A stretch of 64,000 nucleotides of DNA from a virus. Below the pieces are notes generated by a model. That model did no database searches. It was given only the letters and a program-made list of their open reading frames with translations, and was not told the DNA's origin. Below are positions 39,395-55,635 of this stretch, in pieces. Every line of letters begins with the position of its first letter. Within the stretch, counting starts at the first letter, position 1. A program made the translations under genes and the position numbers. The DNA is taken from the IMG/VR virus record IMGVR_UViG_3300029705_000062; one strand, written 5' to 3'.

Positions 39395-39606
39395 AATTGA
39401 AATATGCATTATTATTAATATTTAACTTAACGGGCGGAATTCCCCTTCCTCAATGAGCTTTAGCTCATAGGTGGGGGATGGATAGCCCTTTTTGTATCTG
39501 TAAACAGAAGATACTGAGTAAAATTTTTACTATAGTAATACGAATAAATATATTAAAATGTGATATAATATAATTAGTATATTACTAGGTTAGGAGGTGA
39601 TTTTGT

Positions 39607-40848
39607 ATGGTTGATAGTCAAAATTGGATAAAGAAAAATAAAGGATTCAAATATCTTTTATTACCAACTGATAGTCAAGTTGAATATTTATGTAAAGCTT
39701 TTGGTTGTAAACGTAAAATGTATAATGAGTACGTTTCAAAAATGATAGATAAACTTGAAGAGGATGGTTTTGAAAATGGAAAAATAACTTATTCTAAACT
39801 TAACTTACCTAGTCCAGCTAAGATTAAAAAAGAGTTTCCATTTATGAAAGAAGTTGATTCTCTCGTTTTTTGTAATGCTGAAATATCTTTCAAAAATGCT
39901 GTGACTAAATATAATGACAATGCTTATAAAAAGCAATATATAAAGAGTGCATTAAAAAAACAAAAAACAATAGGTAGAAAATTAACTTTCAGAGATTTGA
40001 AAGGTTTACCTTCTTTCAAATCAAAAAAAGACGGTTTTGATTCTTTTACTACTAATAACCAAAATACTGCAAGTGGCGAGACTATCAAAGTTGAAGGTAA
40101 TTATATAAAAATACCAAAACTTAAAACTCCAATAAAATTTATCAAACATAGAGAATTGCCTCCTGATGGAGTAATCAAAAATATTACTATTTCAAAAGAT
40201 AGTAAAGGTAAATTCTATATATCTATAAACGTAGAATATTATGTTTTAGATAATAAAGTAAATACAAATAAAGATAAAGTTGTAGGTTTAGATTATTCTC
40301 AATCTGATTTTTATTATAGTTCAGACGATAAGATAGCCAATTATCCAAAGTACTATAAAAAATTAGAAGAAAGATTAATTAAAGAGCAAAGAAAATTATC
40401 TTCAAAAAAATATAATTCAAACAACTGGCTTCGTCAAAAGAAAGTTGTAAACAGACTCCAAACTAAAATAGCTAATCAACGAAAGGATTGGTTACATAAA
40501 GAAAGCTATCGCTTAGCCGAAAATTATGATGCAGTCATAGTTGAGGATTTAGACTTAAGAAACTTGGCACAATGTTTATCTTTAGGTAAAAATCTTCACG
40601 ATAACGGATTTGGTATGTTTAGAACTTTCCTTCAATATAAACTTGAAGATAGAGGTAAACAACTAATTAAGATAGATAAATGGTTTGCATCTAGCAAGAC
40701 GTGTTCTTCTTGCGGAACTAAACATGAAGAGTTAAAACTAAAAGACAGAATATTTGAGTGTAAAAAATGCAAACTTACTATAAATAGAGATTATAATGCT
40801 AGTCTTAATATAAGAAATGAAGGCTTAAAAATATTAGGATTAGTATAA
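39607..40848 (+). CDS. tnpB: TnpB RNA-guided endonuclease
   Basis: RuvC D (VVGLDYS), E (VIVEDLDL), D (NRDYNAS). Zinc finger CSSCG...CKKC. Confidence 0.85.
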   Translation: MVDSQNWIKKNKGFKYLLLPTDSQVEYLCKAFGCKRKMYNEYVSKMIDKLEEDGFENGKITYSKLNLPSPAKIKKEFPFMKEVDSLVFCNAEISFKNAVTKYNDNAYKKQYIKSALKKQKTIGRKLTFRDLKGLPSFKSKKDGFDSFTTNNQNTASGETIKVEGNYIKIPKLKTPIKFIKHRELPPDGVIKNITISKDSKGKFYISINVEYYVLDNKVNTNKDKVVGLDYSQSDFYYSSDDKIANYPKYYKKLEERLIKEQRKLSSKKYNSNNWLRQKKVVNRLQTKIANQRKDWLHKESYRLAENYDAVIVEDLDLRNLAQCLSLGKNLHDNGFGMFRTFLQYKLEDRGKQLIKIDKWFASSKTCSSCGTKHEELKLKDRIFECKKCKLTINRDYNASLNIRNEGLKILGLV

Positions 40849-41012
40849 ATAAAATGCTCCTGAGCATGAGTATAAACTACTTCGGGGTGTGGTTCATGCC
40901 TCGTAAGTTGGTTGCCGATTCGTTAGGCTTAAAATATCCGACCGTTAGGTGGTACAGAGTTCCCACGAAGCTCCCACCTCAAGACCGAAAGGTCTAGGTG
41001 GCGAGTAGTTCA
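40849..41012 (+). ncRNA. Putative omega (RE-derived) guide RNA scaffold of TnpB
   Basis: GC-rich structured segment directly 3' of tnpB, ending at the RE hairpin. The true 5' end probably lies inside tnpB. Confidence 0.5.
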
Positions 41013-53939: not shown

Positions 53940-53965
53940 ATCTCCACCTAGTTGATTGTAAAATT

Positions 53966-54051
53966 TGAACTTCCCCACCTTAACTACCTACGGTGACGTT
54001 TGAAGGTGGGGATTCCTGTTCGATAGTACTATTGTACTAAGCATCCACAGG
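53966..54051 (-). ncRNA. Putative omega RNA scaffold of the second TnpB
   Basis: Structured GC-richer segment 3' of tnpB with a CCCCACCTT / AAGGTGGGG hairpin at the RE. Confidence 0.45.
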
Positions 54052-55182
54052 CTAATAAGCTTGTTCCAAGCTCACTAATCTTAATCCTTCTTTTAGGATA
54101 TTTTTACTAGCATTTACATCTCTATCATGTTCTTCTCCACATTCAGGACAAGTCCATTTCCTAAGTGCTAGATTCTTTACATCTTTATTTCTATATCCAC
54201 ATACATTACATAGTTGACTTGATGGATATGTTTTATCTATTACTGATATAGTTCTCCCATACCAATTAGCTTTATATTCCAACATTCTTCTGAACTCATA
54301 CCAAGATACTTCACTTATTGCACCAGCTAATTTATGATTTTTCATCATATTACTTACTTTTAAATCTTCTAAACAAATTATTTGGTTTTCTTTAATTAGT
54401 TTAGTTGATATTTTATGCAAATAATCTTTTCTTTGATTTGTAATTCTTTCATGTATCTTAGCAATTTTAATTCTTTGTTTATTCCAATTATTACTGAACT
54501 TTTGCATTTTCGATAATTTTCTTTGTTCTAGCTTTAATCTATAATTAGCCTTTCTTAACCACTTAGGATTATCAAAAACATCTCCATTAGAACATATTGC
54601 AAATTCCTTTAATCCTAAATCTATTCCTACATTAGAATCTACTTTTGAAAGTTGTTCTATATCAACTTTACAACATAGGCTAACAAAATATTTTCCTGTA
54701 GGTGTTTTAGATACTGTCGCATTAAGTATTTTACCTTCTACAACTTGGGAAATCTTTGCTCTAATCCATTTTAGTTTAGGTAACTTAATTAGATTATCTT
54801 TAATGGTTATATTATTATTAACACATTTACTTTCAAAACTTCTCTTTGGATTTCTCTTAGTTTTGAATTTTGGAAATCCTTGATTATTACCTTTTTTAAT
54901 TTCTCTAAAAAAGTTTTGATATGCACTATCTAAATCATCAATAGTAGCCTGTAAACAAGTAGAATCTACTTCTTTAAGCCATTCATATTCTTTTTTTAGT
55001 AATGGTATCATCTTAACTAAATCATACTTTGAATACGATTTACCTTGTTCTTCATATGTTTTAATTTGTAATGCTAACATATTATTATATATGAATCTAC
55101 TACATCCAAATGATTTTTCTATCAGCTGTTTCTGTATCTCACTTGGATATATTCTAAATTTATATGCTTTCATTTGTTCCAT
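54052..55182 (-). CDS. tnpB: TnpB RNA-guided endonuclease
   Basis: RuvC D (VGIDLGL), E (IICLEDLKV), D (DRDVNAS). Zinc finger CNVCG...CPECG. Confidence 0.85.
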
Positions 55183-55268
55183 TGATTTTTTACCTCCTTT
55201 TGTGTATTATTTTGATATATATATTATATCATGTATTATTTTAATGCACAATACTTAGGAGGAAAATT

Positions 55269-55409
55269 ATGTTACAAGTAGTTAATATGAAATACCCAAA
55301 ACAATTGTTAGATAGAATAGACAAGTTTAAAGAAGATATGGGATTTACAACAAGAACTAATGCAATTATTCACTTGATTCTAAATTCATTAGAAACTAAA
55401 GGTTATTAG
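55269..55409 (+). CDS. 46-aa ribbon-helix-helix (CopG/Arc-like) protein inside the IS (not in ORF track)
   Basis: AGGAGG SD 7 nt upstream. MLQVVNMKYPKQLLDRIDKFKEDMGFTTRTNAIIHLILNSLETKGY fits a beta-alpha-alpha RHH pattern. Divergent from tnpB. Confidence 0.55.
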   Translation: MLQVVNMKYPKQLLDRIDKFKEDMGFTTRTNAIIHLILNSLETKGY

Positions 55410-55467
55410 TACCTACGGTTAGGCTTACATCCCCACCCTGCTACGCTGAGGATGGGGTATTACGCCT

Positions 55468-55635
55468 TTAAAAGATAAATTCTATTTCTTCTAAATCACA
55501 AAGAAGCTTATCAAATGAAGGTAAGTATTTAGGATAAGTTATAAGGTTTGCACCTTCTTCATACAATACACCTAAAAATTCATACATTGATTTCATCATT
55601 TCTTTTTTTGCTTTTTCTAATCTTTCAGTATTCAT
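55468..55635 (-). CDS. Hypothetical 55-aa protein (not in ORF track)
   Basis: SD AAGGTGGTAA. Encodes MNTERLEKAKKEMMKSMYEF... The stop codon abuts the IS left end. Confidence 0.4.
   Translation of the reverse strand: MNTERLEKAKKEMMKSMYEFLGVLYEEGANLITYPKYLPSFDKLLCDLEEIEFIF

Follow-up and report, generated by a model that had tools for sequence, protein, structure and literature searches.

What is a gene of only 46 codons doing between the left end (LE) and the tnpB gene of an insertion sequence (IS)? The question is raised by IMG/VR virus record IMGVR_UViG_3300029705_000062, of which we analysed a stretch of 64,000 nucleotides (hereafter, the window). The element that occupies positions 53965-55473 of the window is a tnpA-less member of the IS200/IS605 family (an IS1341-like TnpB element), residing in an AT-rich, phage-like genome. 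On the strand opposite to tnpB it carries a short open reading frame (ORF), here called arc, whose product is predicted to be a ribbon-helix-helix (RHH) protein. An initial annotation, made from the DNA letters, had pointed out this ORF and offered several guesses about its function. In this work, we argue that arc is a conserved part of the element and that its product probably holds down the expression of both tnpB and arc itself. The features on which the argument turns are the following.

55269-55409, plus strand: arc-like gene, 141 nt and 46 amino acids (aa), predicted dimeric RHH repressor
54052-55182, minus strand: tnpB, 376 aa, RNA-guided nuclease predicted to be catalytically intact
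55183-55268, between the two start codons: divergent intergenic region of 86 nt with candidate promoters for both genes

The 46-codon frame as a gene of the element

The particulars given for the ORF in the initial annotation, that is, its position and strand, its translated sequence (MLQVVNMKYPKQLLDRIDKFKEDMGFTTRTNAIIHLILNSLETKGY), an AGGAGG Shine-Dalgarno sequence and a gap of 86 nt to tnpB, were all confirmed, with the Shine-Dalgarno sequence located 6 nt upstream of the ATG. In a first protein search, the arc product matched 44 clusters of homologues, which were 68-91% identical to it and for the most part exactly 46 aa long. DNA-pattern scans for arc found no loci in IMG/VR and one in the JGI metagenomes, and further copies were fetched by exact-protein look-ups. 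The DNA set comprises 39 copies of the close clade, with 12 distinct coding sequences among them.

The 141-nt frame is intact in every one of these 39 copies. The median pairwise ratio of nonsynonymous to synonymous substitutions (dN/dS, Nei-Gojobori) was 0.088 for 60 pairs, and comparisons of the window copy with the others gave dS values of 0.37-1.56 and dN values of 0.03-0.19, with synonymous sites near saturation. Such a low dN/dS combined with a high dS suggests strong purifying selection on the protein and, judged by this pattern, the ORF is a real gene. A frame so short, with no significant Pfam match and absent in some close relatives, might still be taken for an unexpressed or non-functional one, either a chance ORF or a decaying remnant. 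Nevertheless, a dN/dS of 0.09 at nearly saturated synonymous sites, the 39 intact frames, a Shine-Dalgarno sequence that matches the consensus and a fold predicted with confidence leave that explanation with practically no probability, and as far as a chance ORF is concerned the selection analysis appears to refute it effectively.

The position of arc is as constant as its frame. In all 39 close copies the gene lies between tnpB and the LE hairpin, which follows arc in each of them, and in 35 of the copies arc is directly divergent from tnpB with a gap of approximately 86-90 nt. Moreover, the arc-tnpB unit was found with at least 12 distinct flanks, each time after a TTTAT-like transposon-associated motif (TAM). 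As read from these copies, arc is part of the mobile unit and moves with the element. The guess that arc might be an addiction or antitoxin remnant found no support, as no partner ORF exists downstream on the arc strand; a co-directional toxin partner is missing there because the LE hairpin begins only 11 nt past the arc stop codon.

Predicted fold of the product

AlphaFold2, run with a 30-sequence alignment, returned an RHH-like model of the arc product with a predicted local distance difference test (pLDDT) value of 93, consisting of an extended N-terminus (residues 1-7), a helix (8-24), a turn (G25-T30) and a second helix (29-43). In addition, the family PHROG 4738, annotated as "transcriptional repressor", matched the product with E = 1.6e-8. 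These two results agree with the reading of the initial annotation, which had called for profile searches and structure prediction, although the RHH models of Pfam, also among the profiles that it had named, gave no significant match.

The search with the model by Foldseek placed the Arc repressor of phage P22 first (1myk_B, TMq 0.67, 28% identity), followed by NikR and CopG. The N-terminal RHH domain of NikR was also matched by sequence, weakly (NCBIfam, E ~0.02), and haloarchaeal NikR and CopG genes turn up in tblastn. An hhalign comparison with P22 Arc gave P = 1e-4 and a probability of 58%, and set N6/K8/Y9/P10 of arc in register with N11/R13/W14/P15 of P22 Arc. Wider relatives bear names such as "ribbon-helix-helix domain-containing protein" and "CopG/Arc/MetJ family transcriptional regulator" in the NCBI and JGI collections. 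The 46-aa protein is predicted to adopt an RHH fold.

The intergenic region and the proposed regulation

According to the initial annotation, tnpB and arc share a divergent promoter region, and this agrees with the promoter-like sites predicted on both strands. The arc candidate, TTGATA-16-TATTAT, lies on the plus strand at 55212-55239 (scan score 10/12). The tnpB candidate, TTGTGC-17-TGATATAAT, lies on the minus strand, with an extended -10 element at ~55222-55230 in plus coordinates; it was read directly from the sequence and its form is kept across copies. Both assignments are inferred. Within the same region we recognized two conserved boxes.

55202-55219: box 1, GTGTATTATTTTGATATA, candidate Arc operator beside the tnpB ribosome-binding site, overlapping the arc -35 element
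55231-55249: box 2, ATGTATTATTTTAATGCAC, candidate Arc operator, overlapping the arc -10 element and the tnpB -35 element

The two boxes form a direct repeat. In two relatives (L193 and L010), 18 nt of box 1 recur exactly in box 2 as the reverse complement, which makes the pair an inverted repeat. Among eight distinct intergenic sequences, the mean pairwise identity was 84% for box 1 and 81% for box 2, against 69% for the centre of the region and 59% for the arc leader. The synonymous sites of arc in these copies are close to saturation. We regard both boxes as candidate Arc operators. At the same place, distantly related arc-tnpB elements show paired repeats of their own, of the GTATATAC / TGATATAC type, and we take these cautiously because AT-rich promoter DNA readily gives rise to short palindromes.

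Based on these data, it is probable that Arc, as a dimer, sits on boxes 1 and 2, represses transcription from the tnpB promoter and also controls its own gene. The dimers would bind the two conserved boxes of the 86-nt region and, with these boxes overlapping promoter elements of both genes, bound Arc would block transcription in both directions. Repression would extend from tnpB to any omega RNA derived from the tnpB transcript, and arc would be subject to autoregulation. In this manner the element could keep a strong internal promoter and yet hold its TnpB/omega-RNA module at a low, self-limited set point. Among the functions guessed at in the initial annotation, repression of tnpB appears to be the best supported.

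Both the binding and the repression are proposed on the basis of published experiments with other Arc proteins of the IS605 family. Moon et al. (bioRxiv 10.64898/2026.09.24.754181, 28 September 2026) described elements in which tnpB points one way, tnpA and arc point the other way, and the intergenic region is a bidirectional promoter. In their work, chromatin immunoprecipitation sequencing (ChIP-seq) of an IS605 Arc gave peaks on the bidirectional transposon promoter. Arc repressed a red fluorescent protein (RFP) reporter driven by the tnpB promoter, and the repression was lost when beta-strand residues or the binding motif were mutated. Elements that contain arc and tnpB alone were likewise tested. 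The published Arc proteins include WP_094548610.1 (P. xylanilyticum) and WP_003367503.1 (C. botulinum); the published DNA contacts are N5/N7/T9, and the transposon-associated clade has n = 362.

Several observations weigh against repression of tnpB by Arc in the window element. The exact promoter assignment is ambiguous, and in such an AT-rich region short repeats and TATA-like palindromes easily arise by chance. At the protein level, no RHH model of Pfam was significant for the arc product, the best match being the RHH-containing HicB-like C-terminus (E = 0.24); a profile search of PDB sequences returned nothing relevant; and the Foldseek E-values were all above 0.8, which is not significant for a monomer of 46 residues. 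Additionally, the residues expected to contact DNA here (M/V4, N6 and K8) differ from the published N5/N7/T9. Owing to this difference, the window Arc probably represents a separate Arc subfamily with an operator of its own. Finally, arc is not essential, since close relatives devoid of it (L001-L003 and L019) persist. Even so, three rival explanations, in which the protein acts in trans as phage cargo, inhibits TnpB by binding to it or modulates transposition at the element ends, are in our view less likely than promoter repression. Each is taken up below, together with the evidence that bears on it.

Comparison with known systems

RHH genes are not new to this group of elements. The initial annotation knew of no RHH accessory gene in the family, and in this respect it was mistaken, as such genes had already been reported both by Zedaveinyte et al. 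(bioRxiv 10.1101/2023.11.20.567912; Science 2024) and by Moon et al. (10.64898/2026.09.24.754181). The former authors found Arc-like ORFs in IStrons and IS elements of the IS605 and IS607 groups, and also hundreds of homologues that accompany TnpB, homing endonucleases, toxin-antitoxin systems or other mobile elements. The latter remarked that some Arc homologues have 50 aa or fewer and are absent from current annotations. With both the genes and their repressor function already in the literature, a claim of novelty fails, and the window element is a good new example of the published Arc regulation. It is not a new kind of system and opens no new question.

The correspondence with the Arc of IS605 elements and IStrons is close. 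In both cases a small RHH protein (~50 aa or fewer) is encoded inside the transposon, divergently from tnpB, and the intergenic region has divergent promoters and paired motifs, which in the window element are predicted promoters and candidate operators. Versions made up of arc and tnpB only exist there as well, and the reported association with homing endonuclease genes has its counterpart here in the relatives L216 and L007. Differently from the published cases, the window element is devoid of tnpA and sits in a phage-like genome. The computationally testable defining features of the published Arc kind are present, the promoters and the paired motifs as predictions.

The element is a natural example of the Arc layer of regulation, in a tnpA-less form, in a phage-like genome and with an Arc of only 46 residues that is easily missed in annotation. 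The comparative data gathered around it, including the conserved boxes, the purifying selection, the loss of arc and a phage homologue outside any IS, could guide work on a second Arc subfamily. A possible use lies in compact, self-repressing cassettes for the expression of TnpB.

P22 Arc, the top structural neighbour, shares with the arc product the RHH fold and an in-register xN-hydrophobic-[KR]-[YW]-P-[KR]xxLLD pattern. The binding of dimers to repeated half-sites with repression of divergent or overlapping promoters, as in P22, is what we predict for arc in the window. The similarity is nevertheless distant (58% probability in hhalign), the operator sequences are unrelated, and P22 Arc belongs to an immunity region instead of an insertion sequence. 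The analogy with CvkR concerns the regulatory logic, since CvkR is also a transposon-encoded repressor of its own effector and transposase genes, but its fold is a winged helix of the MerR type, and neither its protein family nor its transposon class is related to those discussed here.

TnpB and the second TnpB element of the window

The TnpB of the element showed Pfam matches far above the cut-offs (OrfB_IS605, 3.4e-30; Cas12f1-like_TNB, 1.5e-25; HTH_OrfB_IS605, 2.5e-17) and aligns over its full length with the solved ISDra2 TnpB (8exa/8h1j; E = 5e-105). In this alignment, the RuvC D/E/D residues (GIDLG, LEDL, HDRD) and both CxxC pairs of the zinc finger are kept. The initial annotation had described an apparently active TnpB flanked by LE and right end (RE) hairpins, and both the conserved motifs and the hairpins are in place.

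A nuclease that seems intact could itself be the target of the RHH protein, which would then act as an antitoxin-like or anti-nuclease partner blocking the TnpB-omega RNA complex. Altae-Tran et al. (2023, PMC10691335) suggested such a role for the RHH/MazE-TnpB pairs of archaea, and it stands as an open model in Moon et al.; besides, it is common for RHH antitoxins to neutralise a partner protein in addition to binding DNA. The archaeal pairs, proposed as toxin-antitoxin systems, resemble our element in that a gene for a small RHH or AbrB-type protein adjoins tnpB. There, however, the small gene is upstream and co-directional, the units are non-mobile and the RuvC-III aspartate is changed to histidine, whereas here the genes are divergent and form no operon, the element is mobile and its TnpB has the canonical RuvC-III aspartate (HDRD). 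The window element thus lacks the features that define the archaeal pairs. Moreover, the 46-aa protein has no C-terminal extension past the RHH core with which a toxin could be bound. We consider direct inhibition of TnpB very unlikely.

A second TnpB element is present in the window, on the plus strand at 39433-41012, with hairpins of its own at the ends and a 3' region rich in G+C (40850-41012). Its tnpB (39607-40848) encodes 413 aa and matches PHROG 506, "transposase". The initial annotation had treated it as a sister element without an RHH gene. No arc-like ORF is indeed found in its 174-nt leader, but it is not a sister copy, as the two TnpB proteins are only 33% identical. The window holds two TnpB lineages and no tnpA. 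Because the lineages differ to this extent, the absence of arc from the second element carries little information. More can be learnt from close relatives (82% nucleotide or 88% protein identity) that are devoid of an arc segment of ~215 nt.

Distribution of arc among relatives

The survey covered 160 loci encoding TnpB relatives at 37-89% identity. A co-directional Y1 tnpA accompanies tnpB in 60 of them and a divergent homologous RHH gene in five, while 95 have neither. The five loci are L018, from a Clostridium metagenome-assembled genome (TnpB 89% identical), and four from Bacillales (TnpB 51-54% identical). A degraded tnpA comes after the RHH gene, on its strand, in L038 and L042, and this arrangement reproduces the published layout of arc-tnpA facing tnpB.

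The divergent arc-tnpB pair was also found in several contexts in Alkalibacterium, one of them a phage. In Exiguobacterium (L185:1062-3432), an arc-tnpB element separates the HepT-like gene of a toxin-antitoxin pair from the MNT-like one, and in the Bacillus phage SPG24 (Herelleviridae; L190:1286-2647) another has the genes for the head-maturation protease and the portal protein as its neighbours. Several phage records leave the small arc ORF unannotated.

A homologue with a different setting is P0044, a protein of 48 aa that is 68% identical to the window Arc. Its gene, an ordinary phage gene, has an ERF recombinase/65-aa gene on one side and one for a DEAD-box helicase on the other (L012-L017; e.g., L012:1491-1637), and no tnpB, LE or insertion sequence was found near it. 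A gene of the P0044 type may have given rise to the arc carried by insertion sequences, or may have come from it.

The existence of P0044 in a phage ERF/helicase module without any IS nearby, together with a PHROG of phage repressors as the best family match and with the many copies in phage-like contigs, invites the alternative that arc is regulatory cargo of phage origin. Its targets in trans would then be mainly promoters of the phage or of the host, such as those controlling early genes or the replication module, and the IS would be a mere carrier. Within the 64-kb window, however, the candidate operator motif is not enriched outside the element (four matches with up to three mismatches, against 4.85 expected). 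The arc-tnpB pair also recurs in very different hosts and sites, in chromosomes as well as in phages, and this recurrence fits a function tied to the element. A cargo role in trans is, in our opinion, unlikely.

Regarding the possibility, raised in the initial annotation, that the ORF might be absent or disrupted in other copies, the close copies contain no disrupted frame (39 of 39 are intact), but arc is absent in L001-L003 and in L019. In L001-L003, three Clostridioides copies with 82% nucleotide identity, 18 nt replace the ~215 nt (L001-L003:3700-3800). In L019, with 88% protein identity, the replacement has ~41 nt (L019:1300-1510). These four arc-less relatives are also devoid of the strong extended -10 promoter of tnpB. 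In a neighbour-joining TnpB tree, which is uncorroborated, L019 falls inside the arc-bearing clade, and this nesting suggests that arc was lost at least once, in L019.

In the remaining four of the 39 close copies (L007, L207, L216 and L218), a cassette of ~830 bp is nested between arc and tnpB (L216:1138-1959), that is, in the promoter region that Arc would control. It contains two ORFs, one of 171 aa with a weak GIY-YIG likeness that stays below the Pfam cut-off (E = 0.03) and one of 62 aa of the HTH_26/HTH_3 type. The TnpB located past the cassette in L216 is 93% identical to that of the window. At first sight L007 might be taken for an arc without tnpB, and as such for a possible ancestral context; we rejected this candidate because the same HTH gene in L216 belongs to the cassette that precedes tnpB. 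The junctions of the cassette are identical despite three arc alleles (P0001, P0015 and P0037) and three insertion sites, suggesting that it spreads between copies of the element.

Since the GIY-YIG-like and HTH cassette of some relatives lies precisely there, the promoter region under arc control might be a landing pad for nested mobile genes; arc itself, in view of P0044 in the phage ERF/helicase module, may be a recently captured regulator of a phage early region, which would then cross-talk with phage operators. We give little credence to this proposal. If the phage capture were true, the expression of TnpB and of its omega RNA would be tied to the infection cycle of the phage.

Ends of the element and mobility

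The initial annotation correctly placed an element here, but its limits (53966-55466) had to be moved to 53965-55473 after the comparison of independent insertions. The terminal features are given below.

53965-54051, minus strand: right end, from the tnpB stop codon to the terminus, containing the RE hairpin (53973-54011)
55410-55473, minus strand: left end, with an imperfect hairpin (55421-55467) kept in all arc-bearing copies, the flanks diverging just outside
55474-55479, minus strand: TAM-like target motif, TTTATC on the tnpB strand, part of the flank and outside the element

At the RE, six independent insertions diverge exactly at 53965, where a megablast match also begins, and the flank differs in six of six copies. 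The terminus reads ...GTTCAA on the tnpB strand and ends at 53965; it is TCAA-like and in this resembles IS608. The motif directly 5' of the LE is TTTATC, TTTATA or TTTGTA in every independent insertion, and for this reason we call it TAM-like. A search for an empty insertion site found none, and neither the arc segment nor the flanks had a match in the phage collection by megablast or blastn.

The LE and RE hairpins have a common stem, CCCCACC(C/T)T / AGG(A/T)TGGGG, and the element has no terminal inverted repeats. On the tnpB strand both hairpins fold better than shuffled sequence (LE z = -2.2; RE z = -2.7). ISDra2 and other IS1341-type TnpB elements share with it a TnpB homologous over the full length, subterminal hairpins at both ends, a TAM on the 5' side of the LE and the lack of terminal inverted repeats. 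The window element differs from them by an extra segment of ~215 nt, comprising the regulator gene and the promoter, between the LE and tnpB, and by having no tnpA.

No ORF of the 64-kb window matches a Y1 (HUH) TnpA, the best E-value being 5.8. With tnpA missing from both the element and the window, the element is non-autonomous and depends on mobilisation in trans. Rfam searches returned no family over the whole window at the gathering threshold, nor over the element at E <= 1. An IStron, in which a group I intron is fused to an IS605 or IS607 element, was considered and rejected, given that no Rfam match, including to group I introns, was obtained. The RE is conserved among copies and structured, and has no Rfam match; from what is known of the family, the omega-RNA scaffold is presumed to lie in it.

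The decamer TACCTACGGT occurs twice on the same strand of the element, at 53985-53994 in the loop of the RE hairpin and at 55411-55420 right after the arc stop codon. It is kept at the RE in other copies and at the LE in some copies only.

The nearness of the arc stop codon to the LE hairpin (11 nt), along with this decamer shared by the sequence after arc and the RE hairpin loop, could be explained if the RHH protein bound the element ends, at or near the LE hairpin, and modulated excision and integration by TnpA instead of transcription. The decamer, however, is not kept at the LE in L010, L193 and L018, TnpA acts on hairpins of single-stranded DNA whereas it is the major groove of a duplex that RHH proteins read, and the conserved repeats are located in the promoter region. 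We hold a role at the ends to be highly improbable.

One relative (L009:1153-1220) has an LE hairpin with unchanged stems but an inverted loop (tcaacgatagt instead of actatcgttga), as if the loop had been flipped.

The insertion site in the window lies among small genes. On the minus strand, a flanking ORF of 55 aa (55468-55635) takes its last codon and its stop codon from the LE of the element, and if the flanks were rejoined this ORF would become longer by ~12 codons, reaching into the start of the next gene. Since the LE provides the end of the ORF, and the rejoined flanks would lengthen it, the element seems to have been inserted at the 3' end of a small gene. On its other side, ~25 nt separate the insertion from the probable ATG (53939) of the downstream gene, which encodes 150 aa.

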